A program made the translations under genes and the position numbers. Source: Rhizobiaceae bacterium (GTDB lineage: Bacteria; Pseudomonadota; Alphaproteobacteria; Rhizobiales; Rhizobiaceae). Taken from it: 64,000 nt of DNA. The stretch's first letter is position 1; every line of letters begins with the position of its first letter. Under the pieces are notes generated by a model that did no database searches, was not told the origin of the DNA, and worked only from the letters and a program-made list of their open reading frames with translations. This document shows positions 25,634-50,996 of this stretch, piece by piece. The stretch lies in contig JBGSOG010000046.1 in NCBI GenBank assembly GCA_041739225.1, forward strand, positions 92,681 through 156,680. The letters run 5' to 3'.

Positions 25634-26875
25634 TTAGTTCATCAAGCCGAAGCGCGCGGAAATGTCGATTGCCAGAACTGCAAGGCAGGCGATGAAGGCA
25701 GCAAGACCCCAGTAGCGCCATTTGCGAGCGAGAGGATGGCCGCCCTGATTGCCAAGTCGCCACAGTGACAGGTTTACCAGTGCAAAAACTGCGATAACAA
25801 CCGAACTGGTTGCCCCCGCCAATGCGGCAATAGGGAACAGCAACGCCAGTGCGAGGACGACGCCAGCAACTCCAAAGGTGGCGAGGGCAGGGGTCCGGCG
25901 AACTTTGTTCACCTTGCCGAATATGGTTGGAGCCAGGCCTTCATTGGCCATGCCGTAGAGAACACGGGCTGCCATCACGATCTGCACCAAAATGCCGTTG
26001 GTCATCGCCAATGCCGCAATCACCGACACCGGCGCGCTATCCATCCCGGTCAACCGATTGAACAGCAAGGCGACCGGTGCTTGCGCCCCAGCGATTTCAT
26101 CACGGGCCGGGGATGATACGGCAACCAGGGCCAGCAGCACATAAAGCACCAGCGTGATCGCAAGCGTCCACAGGATTGCAAGGGGAATGGTGCGCTCTGG
26201 GTCAATGGTTTCCTCGGCCATGTTTTCGATGTCTTCAAAGCCGATGAACGCGAAAAACGCCAGCAGAGCCGCCCCGATGACAGGCATGAACGGCAGGCCT
26301 GACGTGCCGAGAATTGCTTGCGGGAACTCAAGCGTCGCTAGTCCGGGCAGCCCTGCCGCAATGATGAAAATCAGGGTTGCGACCTCGACGAAGGTGATTG
26401 CAGCGGCAAAGGTGACGCTCTCGCGAATGCCACGGGCTGCAATCAGCGCCAAAAACAGCAGCAAACCAGCCAAGAGCACCGGTTGCGGCAAGGTTGTAAA
26501 TTGCCGCGCATACCCGGTGAAAGCGATGGAGATGGCAGCGCTCGATACGATCGCGATGGTGACAACAGCGTACCCCACCAACTTTGCCCATACCGGGCCG
26601 AGCCCGTGGTGAACGAAAACCGCCTCGCCGCCCGCCTTGGGATATATGCGAACCAGCAAGGCATAGGACAAGCCGGTTGCGCCGGCGATGGCCCCGGCAA
26701 AAAGAAACGCCAGTGGCGCGCGATCACCGGCCAAAGCAATAACTTCGCCGATCAACGCGAAAATGCCCGCGCCGACCGTCACGCCAAGGCCGTAGAAAAC
26801 CAGCCAAGGCAAGGTCAGGGTTCGGTTAAGGCGGGGATTTGCAAGTTTTTCCAGCATGGCAGGAGCATTGCCCAA
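25634..26875 (-). CDS. APC-family amino acid permease
   Basis: 413 aa with 12 TM helices. The N-terminal LPWLVFYGLGVTVGAGIFALIGEV is typical of APC transporters. Confidence 0.8.
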   Translation of the reverse strand: MGNAPAMLEKLANPRLNRTLTLPWLVFYGLGVTVGAGIFALIGEVIALAGDRAPLAFLFAGAIAGATGLSYALLVRIYPKAGGEAVFVHHGLGPVWAKLVGYAVVTIAIVSSAAISIAFTGYARQFTTLPQPVLLAGLLLFLALIAARGIRESVTFAAAITFVEVATLIFIIAAGLPGLATLEFPQAILGTSGLPFMPVIGAALLAFFAFIGFEDIENMAEETIDPERTIPLAILWTLAITLVLYVLLALVAVSSPARDEIAGAQAPVALLFNRLTGMDSAPVSVIAALAMTNGILVQIVMAARVLYGMANEGLAPTIFGKVNKVRRTPALATFGVAGVVLALALLFPIAALAGATSSVVIAVFALVNLSLWRLGNQGGHPLARKWRYWGLAAFIACLAVLAIDISARFGLMN

Positions 26876-26986
26876 ATTTCACTGCAAGGATGTGATCGGT
26901 ATCAACCATCCGGGCTTTTATTGGTGTGCAATGGTCCGGCAATGTGCTTCAAGGTCGAAGCTTGAATTGAAATCCCGGAGGCAGGA

Positions 26987-28078
26987 ATGTCGGCAGCATA
27001 TCGCGCAGTTGATGAAGCGCTTAGCGAGGGCATCTTGTCCAATGAACAGGCAGGGCGGCTCAAGATCCTGTTTGCCAGCCATGGCGTGGTTGAAGCAGCC
27101 GGGCGCGCTGCATCGCCTGAAATCGACACCGACAGCGAAGCGCCGCGTTTCCTGCGCGGTTTTCACGACATCCTTATCACCATTGGCGTGGTTGCGGCGC
27201 TGGCCGGTTTGTGGGGCGTTGCTTCGGCAGGCGCGATGGGATCGTTCATTGGTCCGGTGGTCACGTTGATTGCGATCATACCACTGGCAGAATTTCTGGT
27301 GTTCCGCCAAAGGCTGGCGTTGCCAGCCTTTGTGCTGACCGTGTTCACGGTTGTTGCCGCCGGTTATCTGGGCGAAGCATTGTCCGGCGACATCAAGTTC
27401 CGCTTTGGTGAGGAGGCCGGCGGCGCGTTGGCCGCGCTGCTTGCGTTCGGCGCACTTGTGCCATTTTACTGGCGCTACAAAGTCCCGGTCGCGCTGGCGG
27501 CGATGATTGCGGCAGCGGCAGGAACGGCATTCCTGACGGTACTCACCTTGGTTGCCGGATCGAGCGAGGCACCATCGCCGCGCCTCGTTGGTCTGCTTGG
27601 TTTTGTGTTTGCCGCCGGGCTGTTTGCTGCAGCCATGTGGTTTGACCTGTCCGACCGGCTGCGCCGCACCCGACGCTCCGATGTGGCGTTCTGGCTGCAC
27701 ATGATTGCCGCTCCGTCGCTGCTCTATTCGGCCTTTGCCATGGTGTTCGGCATCAGCGGCTTCAACAACAGCGATGCGCCTGCGCCACAGATGGAAACCG
27801 CGCTGATGGCACTTGGCATCATCGTGGTCTTGATGCTGGTCGGCGTTATCATCGATCGCCGGGCTTTCGTGACATCCGGCCTGATCTCGCTGGGCGTGGC
27901 GCTGTATGCGCTGTTTTACCAGGTCGGCATTTCGGCAAGCGGATTGACGCCATTTGTGGTGCTGATGGTGGGTGTCACGGTGTTGTTGCTCGGGACGGGC
28001 TGGGTGCGGCTGCGCTCTTTGATGCTCACGGCATTTCCGGCATCGCTGCGCGAAAAACTACCCCCGGCCAAGCGCTGA
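26987..28078 (+). CDS. Polytopic membrane protein (DUF2157-like N-terminus)
   Basis: 363 aa. A soluble N-terminal segment (EGILSNEQAGRLKILF) is followed by about 9 TM helices. The family assignment is tentative. Confidence 0.5.
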   Translation: MSAAYRAVDEALSEGILSNEQAGRLKILFASHGVVEAAGRAASPEIDTDSEAPRFLRGFHDILITIGVVAALAGLWGVASAGAMGSFIGPVVTLIAIIPLAEFLVFRQRLALPAFVLTVFTVVAAGYLGEALSGDIKFRFGEEAGGALAALLAFGALVPFYWRYKVPVALAAMIAAAAGTAFLTVLTLVAGSSEAPSPRLVGLLGFVFAAGLFAAAMWFDLSDRLRRTRRSDVAFWLHMIAAPSLLYSAFAMVFGISGFNNSDAPAPQMETALMALGIIVVLMLVGVIIDRRAFVTSGLISLGVALYALFYQVGISASGLTPFVVLMVGVTVLLLGTGWVRLRSLMLTAFPASLREKLPPAKR

Positions 28079-28094
28079 CAAGGCCGCATGAATC

Positions 28095-29123
28095 ATGGCG
28101 AGGATCTTTCATCCAACCGATTTCACGCAGGCCAGCCTCACAGCGTTCCACCATGCGCTGCGGCTTTCGTTTGATGGCGAACTGACGCTGATTCATGTTC
28201 ATCCAAGAGGCAACGACGGCGACCTTGCTGATTTCCCCAAGGTGCGCGACACGCTGGAGCACTGGAAGTCCGGTGGCCTGGCCATGGCGAACTTGCCAAA
28301 AGTGCTCAAGGTCAAGGCTGAAGGGAACCATGTGGCCGCTGCCCTCGATGCGGACCTGCGCCGCCATCCGGCAGAACTGGTGGTTCTGGCCTGTCACCCG
28401 CGCGAGGGTATTTCGGCCTGGCTGAAACCGTCAATCTCGCAGGAATTCGTTCGCCGCACGCGCGCACCGGCGCTGTTCGTGCCGGAGGGCGTTTCCGGCT
28501 TTGTGCGCGCTGATGGCTCGATCAAACTCGATACCGTCCTTGTTCCGGTGGCTGGTGAACCTGATCCGCAAATAGCATTGGATGCGGCACATGCGCTGTT
28601 TGCCGCGCTCGGGCATCAACCGAAACTGGTGGTGCTGGTCCATGCCGGGCTGGAGCTGCTGTCGCCGCTTCCGGCGATGCCGCACAATGCCAATCATGGT
28701 CTGGAATCCGTGACGATCGAAGCTGAACCGGTCGAGGCGATCTCGCAGGCATCTGCCGAATTCCGGCCCGATCTCATCGTCATGACCAGTGCCGGCCATG
28801 ACGGCTTTCTCGACGCGCTGCGCGGCTCGACCACAGAACAGGTGATCCGTCGCGCGCCATGCCCGGTATTGGTGGAACCCGCACCGGATTATGGCGCGGC
28901 ATCGGCGGTGCAGGAAATTTCGCCCCATCAACAGGTTGCAAGCCTGGGGCAAGTCTCCTTATGTATGCAAGGGGAAAAGGGGCCGGGGCATGGAAAGCGA
29001 GACTGCGAAAACGATTGTGGAGATTTGGGGCTGGAAGTTCGGGCTGTCGGAACTGTTGGCGGTCGCCGGATTGGTCGCTGCCGTTCTGGTTCCCTATCAT
29101 CTATTCTACAAGCAACGGCCTAG
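28095..29123 (+). CDS. Tandem universal stress protein (UspA-family); 3' end uncertain
   Basis: There are two USP-like halves (...ELTLIHVHP...ALFVPEG and ...LVVLVHAG...MTSAGHDGFLDALRGSTTEQVIRRAPCPVLVEP). USP domains normally end soon after the PVLV motif. Here the frame stays open to 29123. The last 44 codons have only 17/44 G/C at third positions and overlap a better-looking frame. Confidence 0.65.
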   Translation: MARIFHPTDFTQASLTAFHHALRLSFDGELTLIHVHPRGNDGDLADFPKVRDTLEHWKSGGLAMANLPKVLKVKAEGNHVAAALDADLRRHPAELVVLACHPREGISAWLKPSISQEFVRRTRAPALFVPEGVSGFVRADGSIKLDTVLVPVAGEPDPQIALDAAHALFAALGHQPKLVVLVHAGLELLSPLPAMPHNANHGLESVTIEAEPVEAISQASAEFRPDLIVMTSAGHDGFLDALRGSTTEQVIRRAPCPVLVEPAPDYGAASAVQEISPHQQVASLGQVSLCMQGEKGPGHGKRDCENDCGDLGLEVRAVGTVGGRRIGRCRSGSLSSILQATA

Positions 29124-30520
29124 ACGCTCTTGAACGCGTTCTCGCCGATCCGGCATCGCGGCGAGATCTTTTCGAACGGTATTCGGCCAAGACCGCGCAT
29201 GAAGCATATTTCAATGCAATACGCAGATTAGAAATTTGGACCGACGAATATTTTGAAGTCTACATGAATGGAAAAAATAGGAAATATCTCTCGTTTTACA
29301 CGTTGCAGCGCTGTTTAAAAATTTCAATTATATATCCAATATTTTTTCTATTTTTGAGTTGGCTATTTGGTGCACCAACTAATTTTGGATATTTTTCTCT
29401 TCTCCCAGAAGAAGCAAATTTAACATTACGAATTTCTACAACGTTTTTATCTGCATTGATATTTTTAATGATTTATCATATATTATCTGCGAATTCACGT
29501 GTTGAGAAAAATATAAATATATGTATGAATAAAATACAGGAGAAATATAATATAATTAAAATTAACAGTTATACGGTTTTTATAATAAATATGTTTTTTA
29601 TAACTTTGATTACTTGTTTTTTATTGTATCCAATATTAATTATATTTGGAGTATTTGGAGTTATATTATTTGTAATTTTCATAGTTAATGTTTATTCGGA
29701 AATGATTGTATTTTTGGTTTTTTTGCTGATTTTCAGTTCTTTGTTTTTCGAGTTTCTGCCAATTTTATGCTTAAGTGCATTTTTAGTTGCCGTTTATTTT
29801 GGGCTCTTTGAGCACGCAGTTTTTATTTCATGTGTTGCGATTTTTTCTTCTTTTGTTTTATCCGAAAGCGAACAAATTAACGTAAGTGATGCTGCATTTT
29901 TAATAATAGTAATTTTCATTCTTATTCTCCCTGTTTTCAATGCAATTTTCGATTGGCTTTCGGTCGCTGCTACACGGTACTTTATACATCGGATAGTGAT
30001 TGAGGAAAATATTTCATTGATGATATTTAACATGCTTATTGACTTCGCATTGGCTGTTATTTTCTTGGTTGCACTGGCTTTTCTTTTGCCGCTAGCAACT
30101 GAGTTTTCAGTTCGTCTACTGGACCTCGAATTCGACTGGAGGGCATGGATTGCTAGGGCGCATTTGAAGCCTTGGCCGGACAGCATTCCTCTGCTGGCAA
30201 TGCTGGTGACGACGCTGGTTCCCACCATCATTCACCTGGGTGCCGGGATTGGCGCTGTGGTCGCCAATTTCTTCGGCTCGTACAAGCGCATTGCCGACCA
30301 GATCGCTGCCTATGAAAATGACGGCAAGAGCTTTCATGCCAGCCGACAACAGGAAATCGCCGGGAAGATCATGGCCGCCGACATCTGGTACATTCCGGCA
30401 TTTGTGCTGGCGGGCGGGTTTGTTGGCGGTGCTGCTTGGGCGCTATTCCACTTTTTGGCCGGTTTTGGACTGACGCTTGCCAATCTGGCGCTATGGGCAG
30501 GTGATCTCGTCCGGTTCTGA
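28859..30520 (+). CDS. Orphan polytopic membrane protein (about 12 TM) with an extremely AT-rich central block; start unresolved
   Basis: This is the only open frame across 29134-30520. Before about 29110 the translation is Arg/Gly/Trp-rich and not protein-like. From NGLDALERVLADPASRRDLFERYSAKTAHEAYF onward it looks real. The first in-frame ATG after that point is 29264. The central part uses ATA, TTA, AAT and AAA codons heavily. No family recognised. Confidence 0.7.
   Translation: MPGIGGTRTGLWRGIGGAGNFAPSTGCKPGASLLMYARGKGAGAWKARLRKRLWRFGAGSSGCRNCWRSPDWSLPFWFPIIYSTSNGLDALERVLADPASRRDLFERYSAKTAHEAYFNAIRRLEIWTDEYFEVYMNGKNRKYLSFYTLQRCLKISIIYPIFFLFLSWLFGAPTNFGYFSLLPEEANLTLRISTTFLSALIFLMIYHILSANSRVEKNINICMNKIQEKYNIIKINSYTVFIINMFFITLITCFLLYPILIIFGVFGVILFVIFIVNVYSEMIVFLVFLLIFSSLFFEFLPILCLSAFLVAVYFGLFEHAVFISCVAIFSSFVLSESEQINVSDAAFLIIVIFILILPVFNAIFDWLSVAATRYFIHRIVIEENISLMIFNMLIDFALAVIFLVALAFLLPLATEFSVRLLDLEFDWRAWIARAHLKPWPDSIPLLAMLVTTLVPTIIHLGAGIGAVVANFFGSYKRIADQIAAYENDGKSFHASRQQEIAGKIMAADIWYIPAFVLAGGFVGGAAWALFHFLAGFGLTLANLALWAGDLVRF
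28990..29133 (+). CDS. 47-codon ORF with one TM helix; possible true N-terminus of the downstream membrane protein (frameshift?)
   Basis: MESETAKTIVEIWGWKFGLSELLAVAGLVAAVLVPYHLFYKQRPRRS. Third-position G/C is 30/47 by my count, which is host-like. It stops at 29131-29133, exactly where the long downstream frame begins to look protein-like. Confidence 0.4.
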   Translation: MESETAKTIVEIWGWKFGLSELLAVAGLVAAVLVPYHLFYKQRPRRS

Positions 30521-30524
30521 CCGC

Positions 30525-31628
30525 TCACGTGTTGAACTTGAACAGCAAAACGTCGCCGTCCTGCACCACATATTCCTTGCCTTCGTCGCGCGCCTTGCCA
30601 GCTTCCTTGGCCGGGACTTCGCCGCCGAGCGTCACGTAGTCGTTGTAGGCAATGGTCTGTGCGCGGATGAAGCCGCGTTCAAAATCGGTGTGGATGACAC
30701 CGGCGGCGCCGGGGGCCTTGGTGCCCTTGGTAATGGTCCAGGCCCGCGTTTCCTTTGGCCCGGCGGTGAAATAGGTGATGAGGTGCAAGAGGTCATAGCC
30801 CGAGCGGATCAACCGGTCGAGGCCGGGTTCCTTGAGGCCCATCGCCTCCATGTATTCGCTGGCTTCAGCGTCCGGCAGTTGCGCCAGTTGCGCTTCAATG
30901 GCTGCTGAAATGACGATGGTGGACGCGCCTTGTTCCTTGGCCATGGCTTCGACGCGTTTGGTGTGCTCGTTGCCGGTGGCGGCGTCTTCTTCCGACACGT
31001 TGCAGACGTAGAGGACCGGGTGCGAGGTCAGCAGGTTCAAACCATCGAGAATCGCGATTTCGATTGGGTCGGATGTTTTGCGCAGGATGCGGGCGGGCTT
31101 GCCCTCCTGCAGCAGCGCAAGGGCGGCTTCCATCACCGGCAGCTGCTCCATGCTTTCCTTGTCCTTGCCTTGCGCCCGCTTGCGGGTATTGGCAATGCGG
31201 CGCTCAAGGCTGTCGAGATCGGCAAGCATCAATTCGGTCTCGACCGTGTCGGCGTCGGCGACCGGGTCGATGCGGCCCTCGACATGGGTGATGTCGTCGT
31301 TTTCAAAGCAGCGCAGCACGTGAACGATAGCGTCGACCTCGCGGATGTTGGCAAGGAACTGGTTGCCCAAGCCTTCGCCCTTTGACGCGCCGCGCACCAG
31401 CCCGGCAATGTCGACAAAGGAAATGCGGGTGGGGATCAGCTCCTTGGAGCCAGCGATGTTGGCAATGGCGCGCATGCGCGGATCGGGAACCGCAACTTCG
31501 CCGGTGTTCGGCTCGATGGTGCAGAACGGATAGTTTGCCGCCTGCGCCGCAGCTGTGCGGGTGAGCGCATTGAAAAGGGTGGACTTGCCGACATTGGGCA
31601 GTCCGACGATACCGCATTTGAAGCCCAT
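30525..31628 (-). CDS. ychF: Redox-regulated ribosome-binding ATPase YchF
   Basis: MGFKCGIVGLPNVGKSTLFNALT, 367 aa, with a C-terminal TGS-like ...VVQDGDVLLFKFN. Confidence 0.95.
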   Translation of the reverse strand: MGFKCGIVGLPNVGKSTLFNALTRTAAAQAANYPFCTIEPNTGEVAVPDPRMRAIANIAGSKELIPTRISFVDIAGLVRGASKGEGLGNQFLANIREVDAIVHVLRCFENDDITHVEGRIDPVADADTVETELMLADLDSLERRIANTRKRAQGKDKESMEQLPVMEAALALLQEGKPARILRKTSDPIEIAILDGLNLLTSHPVLYVCNVSEEDAATGNEHTKRVEAMAKEQGASTIVISAAIEAQLAQLPDAEASEYMEAMGLKEPGLDRLIRSGYDLLHLITYFTAGPKETRAWTITKGTKAPGAAGVIHTDFERGFIRAQTIAYNDYVTLGGEVPAKEAGKARDEGKEYVVQDGDVLLFKFNT

Positions 31629-33076: not shown

Positions 33077-33364
33077 TGTTTAGCCTTTCTGGGTTGCTGG
33101 GGCATCCGGATGGCATCGACCAATCCGGATTTTGCCGGGTCTGTGCATGGGATGCACAAACGCAACAAGCCCGCGCTGCCTCCAAGGGTGTCTGCGCGGG
33201 TGGTGGGTCTATAGGCGAGGAGGGGCAAAATGGCAAGCCATTGTGCATCCACGCTCACGAACACGATTGCGGCGAACAATTCTGCTTGAAAGCCGGCGTG
33301 ATGCCCTTTGCGAACCTTGGTGACGCTGCATAGTGCGCAAGTCCAACCGCAAAGGGTCATTGCG

Positions 33365-34741
33365 ATGCGTGCACACATCAAATTCATTGCGGCCCTGGCG
33401 GTTTGCATGGCTTGGACGGCCCCGGTGAGCGGCCAGACAGCGCCGGTGCCGGATGCCGATGAAGCGCTGATCATCGATGCCGTGTTTGGCGAAGCCTCGG
33501 TCCAGGCCAACGCCACGGCAAAGCTGATTGTGAGAAAAAATCTGGATGCAATTGCGCCGTTGCTTTTGACCATGCGGTTTCGCGGACCGCAAGGAGGTGT
33601 TGGAGAGGCGTTGCAGGCATTGACCGGCGTCCAGTCACTTGACTGGAACGAGATCATGCTGTGGCAGGAAGCCCATCCGGAAGTTGTTCCCCATCCGGCA
33701 TACCGGCAAGCGAAGTTGACGATCTACAACCAGATTGATCCGCAGTTCATGCGCTTCATTGGGCAAGACCGAAGCAAGCGCGAAAACATGCGGATACGAT
33801 TTGAAGAAATCGAGTGGGGCGGCGTCGGCGTTGACGGCATTCCGTCGCTCGACAATCCGCAGTTGGTGGATGCTTCTGCCGCTGACTATCTGGCCGATGA
33901 CAGCCTGGTCTTTGGCGTTTCAATCAATGGCGACGGTCGGGCCTATCCGTTGCGGATCATGGGTTGGCACGAAATGTTCAACGAGGTGATTGGCGGTGTT
34001 CCTGTCGCGTTGGCCTATTGTACGCTGTGTGGCTCCGGCATCTTGTACGAGACAAAGGTTGAAGGGCGCGGAAAGCCGTTCGTTTTTGGCTCGTCCGGGT
34101 TCTTGTACAGATCGAACAAATTGATGTTTGACCGCGAAACCGACAGTCTGTGGAACCAGTTCACCGGTGAGCCGGTTGTCGGGCCTTTGGCTTTCAGCGG
34201 CATTAAACTGAAAGTGCGCCCGGTAGCGATCACTTCCTGGGGGAAATGGAAAGCGGAAAATCCGGCCACGAAGGTGTTGTCGCTGAAAACCGGACACAAC
34301 CGCGACTATGGCGAAGGCGTGGTTTACGAAAGCTATTTTGGCAGCCCGGACTTGATGTTTCCTGCCATTGTTGGCGATGAAAGCATTGTGAAAAAGAAGG
34401 ATTATGTGTTTGGCATGCGCGAGGTCGGCGTTCAGAAGGCCTGGCCGCTGTCTGCCTTCAACAAGGAGCCGGTTATCAATGACAAGCTTGGCGAAATAAA
34501 CATTGTCCTGATCGGCGACGAGGCGACGCGAACTGTTCGGGCCTATGAGCGAAAGGAATTGTCGTTCCAATATGCCGCTGACGGGAAGGTTGCCGGACCC
34601 GGCGGCGCCTGGACTTTGTCCGAAGATGCGCTTGAAGGGCCTGCGGGTGAGAAGCTTTCGCGTCTTCCCGGGCACATTGCCTATTGGTTTGCCTGGAACA
34701 ATTATTTCGGTGTCCAAAGCGAACTGTACGTCGCAAAATAG
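33365..34741 (+). CDS. DUF3179 domain protein (secreted)
   Basis: Start moved to the ATG at 33365, giving the signal peptide MRAHIKFIAALAVCMAWTAPVSGQ. GVDGIPSLDNPQ...AYPLRIMGWHEMFNEVIGGVPVALAYCTLCGSG is the DUF3179 core. Confidence 0.8.
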   Translation: MRAHIKFIAALAVCMAWTAPVSGQTAPVPDADEALIIDAVFGEASVQANATAKLIVRKNLDAIAPLLLTMRFRGPQGGVGEALQALTGVQSLDWNEIMLWQEAHPEVVPHPAYRQAKLTIYNQIDPQFMRFIGQDRSKRENMRIRFEEIEWGGVGVDGIPSLDNPQLVDASAADYLADDSLVFGVSINGDGRAYPLRIMGWHEMFNEVIGGVPVALAYCTLCGSGILYETKVEGRGKPFVFGSSGFLYRSNKLMFDRETDSLWNQFTGEPVVGPLAFSGIKLKVRPVAITSWGKWKAENPATKVLSLKTGHNRDYGEGVVYESYFGSPDLMFPAIVGDESIVKKKDYVFGMREVGVQKAWPLSAFNKEPVINDKLGEINIVLIGDEATRTVRAYERKELSFQYAADGKVAGPGGAWTLSEDALEGPAGEKLSRLPGHIAYWFAWNNYFGVQSELYVAK

Positions 34742-34887
34742 TCCATAATCGCGGTGCGATTGACTCTCGCCTCTGAAAATTGCAAATCTGCTGCATGGGG
34801 CCAGCGAGCGCCCCGTGAGGCGTAAGCCCAAGTTCGCGTCCATTTCCTTGAGCCCATCAGCTTTCATTCAAAAGGAGTGAGGACGCC

Positions 34888-35703
34888 ATGACGTCTCCAT
34901 CACAAATTACAGTATCCCAATTGTCACGTCTGGTTGGTTTGCCGGATTGTCCGACAATCATCGATGTTTGCACCGACGAAGATTTTGCCGCCGACCCGAG
35001 GCTGATACCAGGTTCAATGCGTTATTCGTTTCGTGAAATTGGCGAGCTTTCGCCAGGCCTTGCCGGGAAGCGGGCTGTCGTGGTTTGCCACAAAGGCTTC
35101 AAGCTCAGCCAGGGAGCGGCGGCAATCCTGCGCGACAGCGGTATCGCTGCTGAAAGCCTTGAAGGCGGCATTGTTGCATGGCGGGAAGCAGGTGAGCCGC
35201 TTGTCCCTGTTGCGAAAGGTCCCATCCCGAACAATCAGGGCAGGACAGTTTGGGTGACGAGGCACAGGCCCAAAATTGACCGCATAGCCTGTCCCTGGCT
35301 TATTCGCCGCTTTGTTGATGCGCGCGCCCAGTTCTTGTTTGTCGAGCCTTCGGAAGTGCTCAATGTGGCCGACCGTTTTGACGCAACGCCGTTTGATGTG
35401 GATGGCGTGTTCTGGAGCCATCGCGGCGAGCAATGCACATTTGACACGATGCTCGAAGAATTTTGCCTGAAAACACCAAGCCTGTTGCGGGTGGCGTCCA
35501 TTGTCCGCGGGGCTGACACCGACCGGCACGATCTGGCGCCGCAGGCGGCGGGGCTTCTTGCTGTTTCGTTGGGCCTTTCACGCATGTATCGCGATGATCT
35601 GAAGCAACTGGATGCAGGGATGTTGATCTATGACGCCCTCTACCGTTGGGCGCGTGACGCCCACGAGGAAAGTCATGACTGGCCGGTCGTCTCAAAGAAA
35701 TGA
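34888..35703 (+). CDS. Rhodanese-domain / ChrB C-terminal-domain fusion protein
   Basis: The N-terminal rhodanese-like fold has the CHKGFKLS active-site loop. The C-terminal VWVTRHRPKIDRIACPWLIRRFVD... is typical of the ChrB_C domain. Its stop overlaps the chrA start. Confidence 0.7.
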   Translation: MTSPSQITVSQLSRLVGLPDCPTIIDVCTDEDFAADPRLIPGSMRYSFREIGELSPGLAGKRAVVVCHKGFKLSQGAAAILRDSGIAAESLEGGIVAWREAGEPLVPVAKGPIPNNQGRTVWVTRHRPKIDRIACPWLIRRFVDARAQFLFVEPSEVLNVADRFDATPFDVDGVFWSHRGEQCTFDTMLEEFCLKTPSLLRVASIVRGADTDRHDLAPQAAGLLAVSLGLSRMYRDDLKQLDAGMLIYDALYRWARDAHEESHDWPVVSKK

Positions 35704-37031
35704 CAGGTGGCGCGATGAGCAATCAGCATTACAGCATCGCCGGTGCAGCACCAACGCTGCGCGACCTTTTCCTTGTTTTCGCACGCATCGGCCTGTTGTC
35801 ATTCGGCGGACCGGCCGGACAGATCGCGCTCATGCACAAGGTGCTGGTTGAGGAAAAGGCGTGGCTTGAGGAAAAGCAGTTTCTGCATGCGCTGAATTTC
35901 TGCATGCTGCTGCCTGGGCCGGAAGCAATGCAGCTGGCCGTTTATGCAGGCTGGCTCAAACGTGGCGTTGCCGGCGGATTGATTGCCGGAACATTGTTCG
36001 TGCTGCCCGGCTTTGCGGTATTGCTGGCGTTGTCGGCGGTGTTTGCAATGTATGGTGAAGTACCGTTGGTGGCCGGGCTGCTGTTTGGCCTTCAAGCGGC
36101 TGTTCTGGCAATCGTGCTTCAAGCGCTGGTCAAGGTTGCAAAGCGGGCTTTGCACGGGCCGCCAAGTTATCTGGTTGCCATTGCCGCATTCGTCGCCATT
36201 GCGCTGCTGAAGCTGCCGTTTCCACTGGTCATTTTGAGCGCCGGGCTGGTCGGCGCCGCATTCAGCAGCCGGTTTGCCAAGTTGGGCAGCGAGGCGGAAA
36301 ATTCTGCCAGGCCCGTACGGGCGTGGCGCCACCTGGCTGCGATGGCGATCTCGGCAATTCTTCTGTGGGTCCTGCCGTTGGCGCTGATGTTGGCTCTTCT
36401 GGGACCAACCAACATCTACACCACCCAGGCCGTGTTCTTTTCGCAAACGGCGCTGGTGACATTTGGGGGCGCCTATGCAGTGCTGGCACATGTCGGCCAA
36501 CAGGCCGTGGAAACCCATCAATGGCTCTCAACGCCTGAAATGATGACGGGGCTTGGCCTTGCCGAAACCACGCCGGGCCCCTTGATCCTTGTGCTGGTGT
36601 TTGTCGGTTTTTTGGGTGGGTTTCGTGATCCTGGCTCGCTGTCGCCGCTGCTGGCCGGCAGCCTTGGCGGGCTGGTCACAGTTTGGTTCACCTTCCTGCC
36701 GAGCTTTTTGTTCGTGTTTTTGGGTGCGCCGTTCATTGAGCACTTGCGCAAGGTGCGCTGGCTTTCAGGTGCTCTGGCTGCGATCACGGCAGCAGTGGTT
36801 GGGGTTATTGGCAATTTGTCGGTCTGGTTTGCGTTGCATGTGCTTTTCGCGCGGGTGAGCACAGTCAATTTCGGGCCGGTTTCAATCTGGTCGCCGGAAT
36901 GGTCGGGCTTTAACCTTGCTGCAGCCGTGATTGCGGCAACTGCGGGAATTGCGCTTTGGCGCGGTTTTCCGTTTGGCTGGATGCTGACCAGTGCAGCACT
37001 GGCTGGAATGTTTGTCAGGTTTGCGGCCTGA
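35700..37031 (+). CDS. chrA: Chromate efflux transporter ChrA
   Basis: 443 aa with two CHR halves (LLSFGGPAGQIALMHKVLVEEKAWL... and ...TFGGAYAVLAHVGQQAVETHQWLS). ATGA overlap with the upstream gene. Confidence 0.85.
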   Translation: MTGGAMSNQHYSIAGAAPTLRDLFLVFARIGLLSFGGPAGQIALMHKVLVEEKAWLEEKQFLHALNFCMLLPGPEAMQLAVYAGWLKRGVAGGLIAGTLFVLPGFAVLLALSAVFAMYGEVPLVAGLLFGLQAAVLAIVLQALVKVAKRALHGPPSYLVAIAAFVAIALLKLPFPLVILSAGLVGAAFSSRFAKLGSEAENSARPVRAWRHLAAMAISAILLWVLPLALMLALLGPTNIYTTQAVFFSQTALVTFGGAYAVLAHVGQQAVETHQWLSTPEMMTGLGLAETTPGPLILVLVFVGFLGGFRDPGSLSPLLAGSLGGLVTVWFTFLPSFLFVFLGAPFIEHLRKVRWLSGALAAITAAVVGVIGNLSVWFALHVLFARVSTVNFGPVSIWSPEWSGFNLAAAVIAATAGIALWRGFPFGWMLTSAALAGMFVRFAA

Positions 37032-48691: not shown

Positions 48692-49426
48692 TCAGTCTAC
48701 ACAAAGCTTGTAACCGATGCCACGCACTGTCTGCAGCCATTTGGGATTGGCCGGGTCTTCCTCGATCTTGCGGCGCAGGCGATTGATCTGCACGTCGATC
48801 TTGCGCTCGCCAGCCAATGTTTCGCTGCCCAGCAGTTCATGACGGGCGACCGTATCGCCGGGACGGGCGGCAAATGCCAACATTATTTCCTGCTCGCGCT
48901 CTGTCAGGCGGACATCTTCACCATTGCGGCGCAGTTCACGCTTTTTGACTGAGAACTGCCAGGGACCGAAACTGACCTGTTCAAAGGTCGGGGTCAGCGG
49001 CTTGGCCACCCGTTTCAAAATGGAATTGATGCGCAACAGCAATTCGCGCGGCTCAAACGGCTTGCCCAGATAGTCATCGGCTCCAGCTTCCAACCCGTCG
49101 ATCCGGCTTTCGGTCTCGGCAAGTGCGGTAAGCATGAGTACCGGTACTGTGCTGCTGCGGCGCAGCGACCGGGTGAACAGCACACCGGTCTCGCCTGGCA
49201 TCATCACGTCAACGATCAACAGGTCGAATTGCAGTGATTCAAGTTTGATGCGCGCTTCGGCGGCATCGGCTGCAACCGAAACCCGAAATCCGTGGTCCGC
49301 CAGATAGCGCGACAGCAATTCACGAATACGCCTGTCGTCGTCGATCACCAGCAAATGTGGAGCGTCGTCAGGCAGGGGTTTTGGGCTGCGTGGTTTTGCC
49401 AGCGAAGAGGAACTGCCAATGGTCAT
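48692..49426 (-). CDS. OmpR-family response regulator (possibly PetR/CenR-type)
   Basis: Receiver domain HLLVIDDDRRIRELL...DLLIVDVMMPG and a winged-helix output ...LRRKIEEDPANPKWLQTVRGIGYKL. The PetR/CenR label is an inference from the MarR-RR-HK gene order. Confidence 0.85.
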   Translation of the reverse strand: MTIGSSSSLAKPRSPKPLPDDAPHLLVIDDDRRIRELLSRYLADHGFRVSVAADAAEARIKLESLQFDLLIVDVMMPGETGVLFTRSLRRSSTVPVLMLTALAETESRIDGLEAGADDYLGKPFEPRELLLRINSILKRVAKPLTPTFEQVSFGPWQFSVKKRELRRNGEDVRLTEREQEIMLAFAARPGDTVARHELLGSETLAGERKIDVQINRLRRKIEEDPANPKWLQTVRGIGYKLCVD

Positions 49427-49968
49427 TTCCGATCTCCCGATTCTTCACTTCGAGCTGCACCGATCATGTCGTCTGCGGGGCTTTTGTCCGATGGGTTGAC
49501 CATGGCTCGCATGAAATCTGAAATTGTTGCATCGTTTTGAAAACCGCTGCTTTTCAATGCGGCATCGATACGGCGGGACTGTGGCCACGAAAGTTCCAGA
49601 ATGAGCTCGCGCCCGGCAGGCGTTGGGTACAACAAGCGCTGCCGGCGATCGCTTTGTCCCTCGACCTGGGCAATGTGGCGTGAATCGATCAATTGCCGCA
49701 GAACGCGCGACAGGCTCTGCTTGGTGATTCCCAAAATGCCGAGCAAGTCAGCCACAGTCATTCCAGGCTTGCGATTGACGAAATAAAGGGCGCGGTGGTG
49801 CGCGCGTCCGTAGCCCAGGTTTTGCAGGATGCGGTCAGGATCTGCGGTAAAGTCGCGATAGGCAAAAAAGAACAACTCGATGTTGGCAATTTGCGGAATG
49901 TCGCGATCGGTAATGGGTTCGTCGATGATTTCCTGCCGGGAAGCGGTGGTATCATTCATGGCTGCCAT
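49423..49968 (-). CDS. MarR-family transcriptional regulator
   Basis: 181 aa. ...HHRALYFVNRKPGMTVADLLGILGITKQSLSRVLRQLIDSRHIAQVEGQSDRRQRLLYPTPAGREL. Its stop overlaps the start of the response regulator gene. Confidence 0.85.
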   Translation of the reverse strand: MAAMNDTTASRQEIIDEPITDRDIPQIANIELFFFAYRDFTADPDRILQNLGYGRAHHRALYFVNRKPGMTVADLLGILGITKQSLSRVLRQLIDSRHIAQVEGQSDRRQRLLYPTPAGRELILELSWPQSRRIDAALKSSGFQNDATISDFMRAMVNPSDKSPADDMIGAARSEESGDRK

Positions 49969-50003
49969 CTCTTTTTCACAGCGTATTGTTGCATGGTTTG
50001 CAA

Positions 50004-50028
50004 TTTATGTCAGTACTATTGACATAAA
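50004..50028. promoter_or_regulatory. Perfect palindrome (candidate MarR operator) in the marR/ilvE divergent region
   Basis: TTTATGTCA-gtactat-TGACATAAA has 9-bp arms and a 7-nt spacer. It lies 36 nt upstream of the marR ATG and about 75 nt upstream of ilvE. Confidence 0.45.
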
Positions 50029-50102
50029 ATTTGGTTGCGCTTAGATTTTGAGCATTGGGGTGGTTTTGGCGCTTTTTGAGCGCTTTTTTCGGGAGAGAGA
50101 GC

Positions 50103-50996
50103 ATGGCGAGCGTTCCATATGACCGTTTGGGAGGCCAGATCTGGTTCAATGGCGAGTTCATCCCGTGGGAAGATGCGAAGATCCACGTGCTGACACACGG
50201 GCTGCACTATGCCAGTTCCGTATTTGAAGGCGAGCGGGCCTATGACGGACGGATTTTCAAGCTGGCTGAGCATACCGACAGGCTTTTCTATTCGGCGGAA
50301 ACGCTGGGCTTCGAGATCCCGTACAGCAAGGAAACCATCAATCAGGCTTGTCAGGAGGAGGTTGAACGCAAGGGGCTTCGCGATGCCTATGTGCGGCCGA
50401 TTGCCTGGCGTGGCAGCGAAATGATGGGCGTTTCTGCACAGAACAACCGGATCAATGTTGCCATCGCTGCATGGGAATGGCCAAGTTATTTCAAACCGGA
50501 AGAAAAGCTGAAGGGCATTCGTCTCGACCTATCCGATTGGCGCAGACCGGACCCGCGTACAATCCCCTCTTTTGCCAAGGCCGCCGGCCTTTACATGATT
50601 TGCACGCTTTCGAAGCACACCGCTGAGCGCAAAGGCTATGCGGACGCCTTGATGCTCAATTGGCGCGATCAGGTGGCCGAGGCCACAGGCGCGAATGTCT
50701 TCTTCACCAAAAGCGGCGTAATTCACACGCCAAAGCCCGATTGCTTCCTCGACGGGATCACCCGGCGCACCGTCATCGATTTGGCCAAGCGCCGCGGATA
50801 TGAAATTGTCGAGCGGGCGATTTTGCCAGAGGAAATGTCAAATTTCGAGGAATGTTTCCTGACCGGGACTGCCGCAGAGGTGACCCCGGTTTCGGAAATC
50901 GCCCAGTACCGCTTCACGCCGGGTGCCATCTGCAAGACCCTGATGGCCGACTATGAAGACGAAGTGCGCGGACGCAGGGCCGTCAAGGCGGCCTGA
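50103..50996 (+). CDS. ilvE: Branched-chain amino acid aminotransferase
   Basis: Start moved to the ATG at 50103 (MASVPYDRLGGQIWFNGEFIPWEDAKIHVLTHGLHYASSVFEGERAY...), a class IV aminotransferase pattern. Confidence 0.9.
   Translation: MASVPYDRLGGQIWFNGEFIPWEDAKIHVLTHGLHYASSVFEGERAYDGRIFKLAEHTDRLFYSAETLGFEIPYSKETINQACQEEVERKGLRDAYVRPIAWRGSEMMGVSAQNNRINVAIAAWEWPSYFKPEEKLKGIRLDLSDWRRPDPRTIPSFAKAAGLYMICTLSKHTAERKGYADALMLNWRDQVAEATGANVFFTKSGVIHTPKPDCFLDGITRRTVIDLAKRRGYEIVERAILPEEMSNFEECFLTGTAAEVTPVSEIAQYRFTPGAICKTLMADYEDEVRGRRAVKAA

Follow-up and report, generated by a model that had tools for sequence, protein, structure and literature searches.

A chromosomal membrane-protein gene on the plus strand of the 64-kb window, as we call the whole stretch of alphaproteobacterial DNA analyzed here, carries an in-frame core of extremely AT-rich sequence (about 29207-30087), across which the G+C content falls from about 0.59 to 0.28, with a lowest value of 0.13. 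This trough is recurrent, graded and specific to one protein family: because distant relatives within the family, in other GC-rich genomes, show it as well, to a varying extent, it points to a repeated process rather than a single foreign insertion. Extremely AT-rich tracts in GC-rich bacteria are nearly always taken as foreign DNA. The trough described here stands in contrast to that rule, since it lies in a native and syntenic gene, retains its reading frame and motifs, recurs at one place and has no detected donor. We consider it probable that the AT-rich recoding happened in situ rather than by import.

The best two-breakpoint step model places the trough at 29207-30087, with a G+C content of 0.281 inside and 0.590 outside. 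For the span 29200-30115, given in a preliminary description of this DNA, the G+C content is 0.289, and the six 60-nt G+C counts listed there (40, 17, 11, 8, 13 and 35) proved exact on recount. Across 200-nt windows in the rest of the 64 kb, the G+C content averages 0.575 (sd 0.037) and never drops below 0.44, so that the trough minimum of 0.13-0.175 lies more than 10 standard deviations below the background; no other region of the window has such low G+C. The transition into the trough is gradual on the left (29160-29340) and abrupt on the right (about 30090-30120). G+C is lowered at each of the three codon positions, with the third-position value (GC3) at 0.10-0.45. The spacers between the genes of the window have a G+C content of 0.47-0.62, as compared with 0.28 in the trough, a difference that we count as support for more than neutral drift. 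A promoter scan was uninformative, with 4 sites as compared with 2.7 expected.

The trough is coding sequence, as the preliminary description had proposed from the drop in composition and the open frame. Its frame contains no stops in 305 codons, the five other frames contain 7-32 stops each, and an open patch frame arose in none of 20,000 mononucleotide shuffles and in none of 20,000 shuffles that preserved codon position. The patch is touched by a single further ORF of 60 aa or more, again as described earlier; this antisense ORF of 145 aa (29794-30231, minus strand; from the ORF list) has no Pfam match and is probably spurious. The codons of the patch are indeed rare elsewhere: TTA accounts for 34% of its Leu codons vs 0% (0/326) in a reference set of eight genes from the window, ATA for 45% vs 4% of Ile codons, and AAA for 100% vs 35% of Lys codons. 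An extreme jump in composition, in what seems to be a draft assembly, might suggest an assembly or binning chimera of a GC-rich and an AT-rich organism, but this is scarcely conceivable, as an independent contig from Logan (L019) matches the window at 100% identity across both junctions, a single frame and the family homology run continuously through them, and the same architecture occurs in the isolate genome of Rhodobium gokarnense and in replicate assembly pairs. The misassembly for which the preliminary description had allowed is thus contradicted by an independent assembly.

The main body of the gene spans about 468 codons (29117-30520, stop codon at 30518-30520), as delimited by the ORF, a profile search, an AF2 model and hydropathy. 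Its 5' end, identified by translation, homology and hydropathy, consists of an ATG and a conserved N-terminal TM helix, MESETAKTIVEIWGWKFGLSELLAVAGLVAAVLVPYHLFYKQ (TM1; 28990-29115, plus strand), read in another frame than the remainder of the gene. The hydropathy maximum falls at residues 15-40, and an N-terminal TM helix likewise starts the family members P0001, P0002, P0008, P0025 and P0029. Because the conserved TM1 (ATG at 28990) stands in another frame, we place a 1-nt frameshift, apparently an insertion, near 29116 (29113-29119, plus strand). This assignment is based on homology in two frames: P0007, the closest homologue, reads '...GGYHLFYKGRAIDRVERRLADP', which matches YHLFYKQ of the window in the TM1 frame and then GLDALERVLADP in the main frame. 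The TM1 frame as written ends at a TGA (29131-29133), and the N-terminal TM helix and the subsequent L-x-D-P-x-x-R helix, which family members are expected to carry in one frame, are parted in the window gene by the frameshift at 29113-29119. The inserted base is also present in L019 (100% identity across 4,432 nt), and it may represent either a real mutation, by which this copy of the gene would recently have been inactivated, or a read error shared by both assemblies. Neither the ORF start (28859) nor the soluble N-terminal segment of the preliminary description corresponds to the real N-terminus, which is that of TM1 in the other frame; the first 81 codons of that ORF are out-of-frame sequence overlapping the ORF of the upstream Usp protein.

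Within the main body, the trough encloses the family motif RCLKISIIYP (29309-29338), the mid-core (aa 126-258 of the main frame, 29477-29875), a TM block with the deepest AT-richness and low AF2 confidence, and the family signature LPVFNAIFDWLSVAATRY (29927-29980), both motifs being read from the translation. It is followed by a C-terminal part of normal composition (30088-30517; G+C about 0.57, GC3 0.5-0.8). Hydropathy indicates about 10 hydrophobic segments, and the AF2 model has a pLDDT of 78 and a pTM of 0.75, with pLDDT values of 41-60 over aa 150-260. The product is thus predicted to be a polytopic, all-helical membrane protein of an uncharacterized family. Gene callers split or truncate the gene, as observed for P0011 (166 aa) and P0152 (331 aa).

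A family profile built from the window protein, P0001 and P0002 retrieved 1,422 cluster representatives at E<=1e-3, of which 108 reach E<=1e-30. The window protein is 26% identical to P0001 over 95% of the query (E 2e-26) and 40-50% identical to P0007 (MEZ5873137.1), and judged by this homology the window gene is a full-length member of a family of ~470-aa membrane proteins of the P0001/P0007/WP_264600708.1 type. Both R-C-[LI]-x-I-x-x-x-Y-P and L-P-x-x-N-A-x-x-D-W-x-S-x-x-x-T-R are found in it, together with the later family motifs D-W, T-T-L-x-P-T-x-x-H and W-Y-I-P-A. Across a 30-sequence alignment, C71, Y78 and P79 of the first motif are nearly invariant, whereas in the second P277, N280 and R292 are invariant and L276, A281, D284, S287 and T291 nearly so. 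Because these motifs sit within the patch, the patch is family sequence.

The family itself is uncharacterized, with 1,422 cluster representatives, no Pfam model and no known fold. The preliminary description had recognized no protein family, and our searches agree: Pfam, NCBIfam and PADLOC models gave no match for the window protein or the family members scanned, a PDB sequence profile search with the window protein yielded nothing below E 0.28, and in a Foldseek comparison of the AF2 model with PDB and BFVD no match reached E<=1e-3 and no TM-score exceeded 0.19. A Wzy or O-antigen polymerase or ligase was considered and rejected, as neither Pfam nor NCBIfam gave a family at E<=0.1 and there was no fold match and, as noted earlier, no glycan gene nearby; by no test was the protein Wzy-like. 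Nor is this a well-known family that is uniformly AT-rich, since most relatives in GC-rich hosts are GC-rich throughout. A reading in which the center always opposes the composition of the host was discarded at the DNA level, given P0087, from a low-GC host, whose Gly/Val-rich center has a GC3 of 0.00.

The gene occupies a conserved locus. Upstream lies a tandem Usp protein (28095-29123, plus strand; Pfam PF00582, last domain ending at about aa 260), whose ORF extends about 80 codons beyond the Usp domain, reaching into the first part of the membrane gene, and downstream lies the convergent ychF (30525-31628, minus strand), followed by pth and rplY as synteny anchors. The closest homologue, P0007, is situated in the same petABC-apt … ychF-pth-rplY interval, and the housekeeping neighbors at the two loci are 70-90% identical, so that the window gene, judged by sequence and position, is a native family member in its syntenic place. 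The comparison with relatives suggested in the preliminary description thus finds the positional orthologue, P0007, present and its gene uniformly GC-rich.

Signs of mobile DNA were sought at the patch and around it. There is no tRNA in the 64-kb window, no Rfam match, no further copy of the patch within the window, and no flanking direct repeat, inverted or terminal repeat or tandem array at the patch. The neighbors are Usp, permease, ychF and pth genes, and both trough boundaries lie within one ORF; the patch is thus no classical island, in line with the first impression. An in-frame mobile insertion (RPE, MITE or intein) was likewise rejected, with residue counts per profile bin like those of the homologues, no terminal repeats and no other copy, as was the target of a diversity-generating retroelement, with no second patch copy, no repeats and symmetric enrichment of A and T. 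No reverse transcriptase was present among the scanned ORFs within about 10 kb of the patch.

Beyond the window, deep troughs were seen at the DNA level in L020 (Rhodobium gokarnense WP_264600708.1, an isolate), L021/L022, L023/L024, L030 and L031, with flanks of 0.60-0.72 G+C and minima of 0.13-0.23. Replicate assemblies agree (99.97% for L021/L022 and 100% for L023/L024; also P0129/P0154). These five family members are only 25-33% identical, and in every case the trough occupies the same profile bins (positions about 100-280). Two further family members have shallow troughs at the same profile positions, the trough of P0115 is intermediate in depth, and the profiles of the other five deep troughs are a mix of box-like and V-shaped. 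By contrast, there is no trough in P0007 or in 14 Hyphomicrobiaceae relatives, and elsewhere in the GC-rich DNA of these loci (277 kb) no 300-nt window falls below 0.42 G+C. The nearest relative of each trough member lacks a deep trough, and the trough members are therefore polyphyletic. Compared with each other, the AT-rich cores have no similarity beyond the family background, which eliminates a shared AT-rich cassette.

These observations also bear on a decaying pseudogene, in which the frameshift near 29116 would have inactivated the gene and the AT-richness would reflect relaxed selection. The displaced frame of TM1 and the split or truncated gene calls would fit such a history, which is nonetheless highly improbable, because the 305 AT-rich codons contain 0 stops where 13-22 are expected, the family motifs are intact, and the AT-core genes P0008, P0025, P0029, P0116 and P0129 are intact, TM1 included. 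With frame and motifs preserved here and other AT-core genes intact, the trough is older than any inactivation.

A replacement of the central block by recombination with a low-GC donor, offered in the preliminary description as a one-off event, is difficult to reconcile with a trough in at least five other distant members whose cores are unrelated. In its repeated form, with low-GC homologues recombining into the family again and again, import has several observations in its favor and is still, in our estimate, unlikely. The four-fold sites of all six troughs (A and T each about 0.24-0.44, C about 0.05-0.13, G 0.10-0.28) resemble a genome of about 30% G+C; low-GC hosts do have family members (L027, with a G+C content of 0.28, and P0093, P0109 and P0111, rich in FYMINK, that is, in the AT-rich-codon residues Phe, Tyr, Met, Ile, Asn and Lys); one member (L032) lies inside an integrative element, and an IS110 element adjoins the AT-core gene on L021; and conserved ends around a variable center recall mosaics of the flagellin type. 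No donor, however, was found among the best 150 of the 1,422 family representatives, by tblastn in plasmids or phages, or in a viral-contig scan, and there was no close relative in two scans of JGI metagenomes. A word-seeded search of 5.8 billion proteins, whose candidate list becomes crowded with hydrophobic words and which for that reason recovered no more than 2-3 relatives, gave none with the patch alone as query.

Comparison with the orthologues further argues against import. The mid-core (aa 126-258) could not be aligned to P0007, which an imported block would explain, but the alignable trough segments are nearest to GC-rich orthologues: the left and right trough segments of the window are closest to P0007 (identity 0.35 and 0.41; the lead is marginal, at 0.41 vs 0.38 for other members), and the next-best matches come mostly from members in GC-rich hosts. 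The C-terminal part (30088-30517) is 55% identical to P0007. The right trough segment of P0008 (Rhodobium) is as near to its positional orthologue P0014 (0.53) as is its GC-rich C-terminus (0.53), the next-best match being 0.43. Recombination would also have had to join DNA of ~28% and ~60% G+C encoding proteins that are 30-40% identical, which leaves no nucleotide homology to recombine on, and nevertheless to keep the frame at both joints and to place them at corresponding sites in six genes. Some trough edges are sharp, as import would predict, whereas composition changes gradually at the left edge in the window and on both sides of the L020 trough, and shallow troughs exist. Sharp edges (L023; the window and L021 on their right sides) also fit recombination breakpoints, and this speaks against recoding in situ.

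The order of the changes may also be read from these comparisons. Trough residues that are identical in the two proteins have a GC3 of 0.28 in the window vs 0.79 in P0007, while identical residues outside the trough have 0.67 vs 0.78; we count this gap at conserved residues as support for a pressure that would have acted at the DNA level. The clade-specific SAKTAHEAYFxAIRRLExW straddles the GC-to-AT transition and is written with ATA, AGA and TTA. At the trough position P0014 has a V-shaped GC3 dip (0.50-0.55 vs 0.70-0.88) without a shift to FYMINK residues, a pattern expected, in this one gene, if DNA composition leads and the protein follows, and the opposite of amelioration after import.

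The same dip of GC3 ahead of the amino acids would fit a neutral or self-reinforcing decay, in which a weakly constrained core escapes the restoration of G+C by GC-biased gene conversion (gBGC) or weak selection and slides to an AT-biased mutational equilibrium, the AT-richness being functionless; it may, as a variant, feed back on local mutation. Both a universal AT bias of mutation in bacteria and the gBGC hypothesis are well established in the literature. Such a decay would be consistent with graded, V-shaped profiles centered where the protein is least conserved, with shallow, intermediate and deep stages that are all seen, with symmetric enrichment of A and T and similar numbers of transitions and transversions, and with a mid-core that diverges quickly at depth throughout the family (identity 0.13 on profile columns). 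We regard it as somewhat unlikely, given that the spacers of the window have kept their G+C, that the 277 kb of neighboring DNA holds nothing comparable, and that decay gives no reason for the restriction to one family. Moreover, in the Dichotomicrobium-like close relatives the core is conserved as well as the ends and GC3 is flat, and thus the core is not generally exempt from constraint or recombination. These same relatives leave a hypervariable center under diversifying selection unsupported. Between orthologue pairs synonymous sites are saturated, with transitions about as frequent as transversions, so that no mutational signature survives. Hypermutation of the deaminase type was rejected, since A and T are symmetric at four-fold sites and transitions and transversions are similar in number.

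Our preferred reading, held tentatively and at a little under an even chance, is that the patch is the native, fast-evolving TM core of a stand-alone chromosomal gene and was recoded in place to AT-rich codons, with a brake on output. The core DNA would have been rewritten into codons that are rare in the host while the reading frame and family motifs were kept, the weakly constrained hydrophobic core tolerating the shift to Phe, Ile, Leu, Asn, Lys and Tyr, and profile positions about 100-280 would have turned AT-rich independently on several unrelated branches in GC-rich genomes. The broader proposition is a convergent compositional collapse within one protein family of GC-rich alphaproteobacteria: the G+C content of the TM core would have been lowered in situ, more than once and by degrees, from about 60-65% to 20-30%, with the neighboring DNA, the intergenic spacers and the gene's own ends remaining GC-rich. 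The odds on this proposition seem to us almost even.

The AT-rich, rare-codon core would constitute a built-in brake on the output of the gene. A regulatory reason for the AT-richness had been offered in the preliminary description as a second option, with MucR among the silencers named, and it is still viable. In alphaproteobacteria, AT-rich DNA is silenced by MucR (PMC9410896), and this H-NS-like protein could be recruited by a tract of 0.28 G+C over ~880 bp against a background of 0.575, a composition typical of MucR/H-NS-type targets. About 300 codons rich in TTA, ATA, AGA and AAA could in addition slow translation. That a silencer or rare-codon brake is the purpose of the core is a conjecture from base composition and codon usage, possible but less likely than not. 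Intragenic AT-rich tracts are usually costly, through spurious promoters and titration of silencers, and the selective reason for building one in situ is therefore not obvious. It also speaks against a brake that the frameshifted copy in the window is possibly non-functional.

What sustains the G+C content of bacterial genomes is a long-standing question, and if the troughs arose in situ, the family would be a natural experiment on the forces (selection, biased gene conversion or local effects) that hold G+C against AT-biased mutation. A collapse in situ would imply either selection for AT-rich DNA or rare codons in a native gene, as a self-imposed silencer and translation brake, or a local regime of mutation or recombination hitherto undescribed in bacteria, such as escape from gBGC or a self-reinforcing AT nucleus. 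If the brake was selected, a native gene would have found a new route into control by xenogeneic silencers and rare codons. Because the cultured Rhodobium gokarnense has an intact AT-core gene, and a relative with a shallow dip, the test case is tractable. Both family and phenomenon are under-recorded in databases because gene callers truncate such genes, giving products of 166, 208 and 331 aa instead of the expected length of about 500 aa.

Several known systems share part of this pattern. Like Rickettsia palindromic elements, MITEs and inteins, the trough is a deviant segment within an ORF whose frame is kept; unlike them, it adds no length, has no terminal repeats and no copies, and contains the motifs of its own family. 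Xenogeneic AT-rich islands are silenced by MucR in alphaproteobacteria (PMC9410896, PMC8857273). The trough resembles these islands in composition only, being AT-rich DNA of the kind preferred by MucR in a GC-rich alphaproteobacterial chromosome, and differs from them as a 0.9-kb patch inside one native gene, with no integrase, tRNA or direct repeats. The enteric Wzy, Wzx and O-antigen ligase genes likewise encode polytopic products rich in Phe, Ile, Leu, Asn, Lys and Tyr at a G+C content far below that of the genome, and rare codons may limit their expression. There, however, the whole gene and its cluster are AT-rich and regarded as horizontally acquired, whereas here only the center of a native syntenic gene is AT-rich. 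Mosaic genes, such as those with the central region of the flagellin fliC or the C-terminal modules of CdiA/Rhs toxins, combine conserved ends with a variable center of lower G+C, and the window gene is like them in its conserved N- and C-terminal parts, its divergent and compositionally deviant center and its preserved frame. The variable part of those mosaics passes from allele to allele, and its donors or related cassettes can be identified; the AT-rich cores described here are mutually unrelated, with no donor in the collections searched, and unlike the mosaics their trough segments track the orthologue, their depth is graded, and the variable part consists of membrane helices rather than a surface domain.

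The AT-rich trough inside the membrane-protein gene is real, striking and reproducible. G+C content is 0.289 across 29200-30115, and a two-breakpoint likelihood fit delimits the trough to 29207..30087 (G+C 0.281 inside versus 0.590 outside); the six 60-nt G+C counts of the preliminary description were all reproduced exactly. The profile is V-shaped, with a left edge that ramps from ~29160 to 29340, a sharp right edge at ~30090-30120, and a minimum of 0.13 at 29582-29641, more than 10 sd below the mean of the rest of the window. Because 200-nt windows outside the patch (mean G+C 0.575, sd 0.037) all stay at or above 0.44, the patch is the sole such region in the window. The only further dip (0.44, at 49861-50081) falls in the spacer that separates ORF 49423..49968 (-) from the divergent ORF 50055..50996 (+), and is probably an ordinary promoter region. 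Both junctions of the patch are spanned by an independent Logan contig (L019, SRR28170464) that is 100% identical to positions 26148..30579, showing that the patch is not an assembly artefact.

GC1, GC2 and GC3 are all lowered within the patch. As had been claimed from the sequence, the frame is open, with no stop in 305 codons as against 7-32 stops in each of the remaining five frames, and none of 40,000 shuffled patch sequences retained an open frame. The codons described as rare elsewhere are indeed far commoner here than in eight genes taken as the host reference: TTA makes up 34% of Leu codons (0/326 in the reference), ATA 45% of Ile (4%), TTT 80% of Phe (35%) and AAA 100% of Lys (35%). 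The genes surrounding the patch are ordinary chromosomal genes, and the initial judgement that this is not a classical island stands: the 64-kb window holds no tRNA, the patch occurs in it only once, and the flanks carry no repeats, tandem arrays or mobility genes. An Rfam scan gave no match; a sub-threshold hit to the archaeal snoRNA sR-tMet at 29117-29188 (-) (24 bits, with the gathering score at 50; E 0.39) is almost certainly due to chance. Elsewhere in the neighbourhood, a gene immediately upstream of the Usp ORF (26987-28078, +) encodes a 363-aa polytopic membrane protein with no match in Pfam, NCBIfam or PADLOC, found on L019 too and missing from the syntenic interval of L018 (the locus of the homologue P0007). 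Downstream of rplY, the gene of a DUF3179 protein precedes a chrB-chrA pair for chromate resistance (33308-37031), which is ordinary context.

A TM helix opens the proteins of the family, and the helix after it bears L-x-D-P-x-x-R. In the window this N-terminal TM helix starts at ATG 28990, in a frame other than that of the main body, reads MESETAKTIVEIWGWKFGLSELLAVAGLVAAVLVPYHLFYKQ… and runs into a stop at 29131-29133. The closest homologue, P0007, reads YHLFYKGRAIDRVERRLADP, equivalent to the window's 'YHLFYKQ' in one frame plus GLDALERVLADP in the other; since the homology runs over two frames, the window gene has a 1-nt insertion near 29113-29119. Skipping one base yields a 509-aa protein with approximately ten hydrophobic segments. 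The start originally assigned at 28859 is not the true one, as the first 81 codons of that ORF are out of frame and overlap the 3' part of the Usp ORF that lies upstream. L019 carries the same extra base, which would be either a genuine mutation that recently inactivated the gene, or an error that both assemblies took over from the same reads. The tandem-Usp ORF (28095-29123, +) runs on for ~80 codons after its last Usp domain, which ends at ~aa 260, and overlaps the real start of the membrane gene (28990) by ~130 nt, and all three forward frames are open from ~28890 to 29120; its annotated stop may not be native, or a further indel may lie at 28880-29123. The window gene is recorded only as pieces of 166 aa (P0011, NCBI) and 331 aa (P0152, Logan), and another AT-core member, P0129, has a sibling call of 208 aa (P0153, ENA), all three shortened by gene callers at internal ATGs within or just past the trough; P0061, P0114, P0120, P0128 and P0138 are possibly shortened as well. 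Owing to such shortening, AT-core members are probably under-counted among full-length proteins.

The protein belongs to a family that is large and real, and without a name. A word-seeded search of 5.8 billion proteins returned only two relatives, and an exhaustive profile search recovered 1,422 cluster representatives at E<=1e-3, of which 669 passed E<=1e-10 and 108 passed E<=1e-30. That no family had been recognised initially agrees with these searches: no Pfam, NCBIfam or PADLOC model matched the window protein or five relatives scanned, Foldseek found nothing in PDB or BFVD at E<=1e-3, and a sequence-profile search of PDB gave no match. An alignment of 30 sequences revealed invariant P277, N280, R292, L325 and P357 and the motifs RC[LI]xIxxxYP and LPxxNAxxDWxSxxxTR, and the AlphaFold2 model is all-helical (pLDDT 78, pTM 0.75), with low confidence in the centre (aa 150-260). 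Surroundings of the family genes vary between loci, the gene being stand-alone. Many C-termini carry a Cys-x-[ST]-x-W-x-H-G-x-C-like motif (…CASSWSHGQCPI, …CSTWWSHGECTSPW; seen in P0002, P0025 and the A2 consensus) that is missing from the window protein and P0007. In five members from low-GC hosts (P0087, P0056, P0117, P0124, P0151), a Gly/Val/Ala low-complexity centre (GVGVGVLGVGV…) occupies the place of the variable core of GC-rich-host members; in P0087 (L032, 4001-5362), whose gene lies amid integrase, ArdC-like and MerR genes of an integrative element, GC3 there is 0.00, so that this centre is an amino-acid effect rather than one of DNA composition.

The closest full-length homologue, P0007 (MEZ5873137.1, from a MAG labelled Nitratireductor sp.), occupies the same chromosomal interval as the window gene, with petABC-apt on one side and ychF-pth-rplY on the other, and the housekeeping genes next to it share 70-90% identity across the two genomes. 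Its gene is GC-rich throughout (0.64), with no AT-rich centre. The two proteins agree best where the DNA is GC-rich, with 58% identical residues in the N-terminal stretch and 55% in the C-terminus; in those flanks of the trough that can be aligned the figure drops to 35-41%, and the mid-core (aa 126-258) is unalignable. Since both family motifs sit within the trough, the patch is part of the family's own sequence rather than an unrelated insert. The P0007 gene shows a single 100-nt dip (G+C 0.48; L018 8501-8600) and, for the Leu that corresponds to residue 116 of the window protein, shares with the window a rare TTA; together these may faintly reflect the same AT tendency.

The trough recurs in the family. 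A scan for proteins with a centre rich in Phe, Tyr, Met, Ile, Asn and Lys (FYMINK, the residues whose codons are AT-rich), flanked by ends enriched in Gly, Ala, Arg and Pro, whose codons are GC-rich, flagged P0008, P0025, P0029, P0116, P0126 and P0129, and DNA look-ups confirmed a deep trough in five of these: P0008 of a Rhodobium gokarnense isolate (WP_264600708.1; L020 6301-7080, flank G+C 0.67, minimum 0.20), P0029 in two ENA metagenomes (L021/L022, 1657-2196, 0.60, 0.13), P0025 in two Logan runs (L023/L024, 241-1080, 0.665, 0.23), P0129 in an ENA metagenome (L030, 490-1089, 0.63, 0.22) and P0116 in a Logan run (L031, 638-1117, 0.72, 0.23). Replicate assemblies were concordant, and each trough spans profile positions ~100-280 plus variable extensions. 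Shallow troughs occur at the same place in P0014 (L033; GC3 0.50-0.55 vs 0.70-0.88) and P0115 (L034; 0.30-0.55 vs 0.65-0.80), and GC3 is flat (~0.73-0.83) in L018 and in fourteen Hyphomicrobiaceae or other alphaproteobacterial loci. Among the fetched loci deep troughs were seen only in this family's gene, and no 300-nt window fell below 0.42 in 277 kb of their other GC-rich DNA. Because deep troughs are confined to the family gene and shallow ones fall at the same place, the trough is family-specific, recurrent and graded; sampling near the window's own lineage is thin. As a trait that recurs within an unnamed family, and not a single event, it is of more interest than the preliminary description could show. 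In L021, an IS110-family transposase (182-1120) lies directly upstream of P0029; the second assembly, L022, begins 251 nt upstream of the gene, short of that position.

We consider it fairly likely that the AT-rich core was recoded in situ. Import from elsewhere is a live alternative, as four-fold sites resemble those of a ~30% G+C genome, some troughs have sharp edges and the family is present in low-GC hosts; synonymous sites are saturated, such that a directional signature is not recoverable. However, trough members are not mutual relatives, the nearest neighbour of each having no deep trough, and their AT-rich cores are alike only at family-background level, indicating no common cassette. 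The low-GC donor originally proposed was not found among the top 150 family representatives, plasmids and phages, viral contigs or JGI metagenomes, nor by querying 5.8 billion proteins with the patch by itself, and the signal is that of the native lineage. Both trough segments of the window that can be aligned are still closest to P0007 (runners-up come mostly from GC-rich hosts), and the clade-specific SAKTAHEAYFxAIRRLExW crosses the composition transition, spelled gca-ata-cgc-aga-tta-gaa. Where the window protein and P0007 have the same residue, GC3 is 0.28 in the window vs 0.79 in P0007 within the trough, and 0.67 vs 0.78 outside. P0008 and P0014 are positional orthologues, both adjoining a hydantoinase and a MarR-like gene; the AT-rich right part of the P0008 trough is as close to P0014 (0.53 identity; next best match 0.43) as its GC-rich C-terminus, and therefore encodes a native-lineage protein. 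In P0014, GC3 dips without FYMINK enrichment, as would be expected if DNA composition led the change, and the reverse of the order in post-import amelioration.

As to why a core recoded in situ would be AT-rich, neutral decay by itself looks insufficient, because the window's spacers keep a G+C of 0.47-0.62, neighbouring DNA shows no comparable decay, and the core of the Dichotomicrobium-like clade is as well conserved as the ends, with flat GC3. A strand-specific deaminase was rejected, its signature being absent. In our preferred reading, the AT-rich, rare-codon core would be retained for a limiting or conditioning effect on expression: a run of ~300 codons with abundant TTA, ATA, AGA and AAA should translate slowly in a host where such codons are hardly ever used. 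MucR, an H-NS-like silencer of alphaproteobacteria, prefers AT-rich DNA (PMC9410896). The main rival, a local and possibly self-reinforcing escape from GC-restoring forces, would account for the V shape and gradation, but not for the specificity to this family.

Compared with known systems, the gene is not part of a genomic island, as the patch boundaries fall inside one ORF and mobility genes are absent. Nor does the patch fit an in-frame mobile insertion (no extra length, no repeats and no other copies in the window) or a diversity-generating retroelement (DGR) target, with no template repeat in the window; a donor-derived mosaic is not supported, no donor having been found in the collections searched and the signal being that of the native lineage. 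Wzy/Wzx genes resemble the patch in composition, but no model of Wzy-like families matches and there is no glycan context. As DNA, the patch resembles a MucR target, and the window gene shares with flagellin- and toxin-type mosaics its conserved ends and deviant centre. The patch is thus of the compositional-mosaic kind, with a mechanism that is possibly new.
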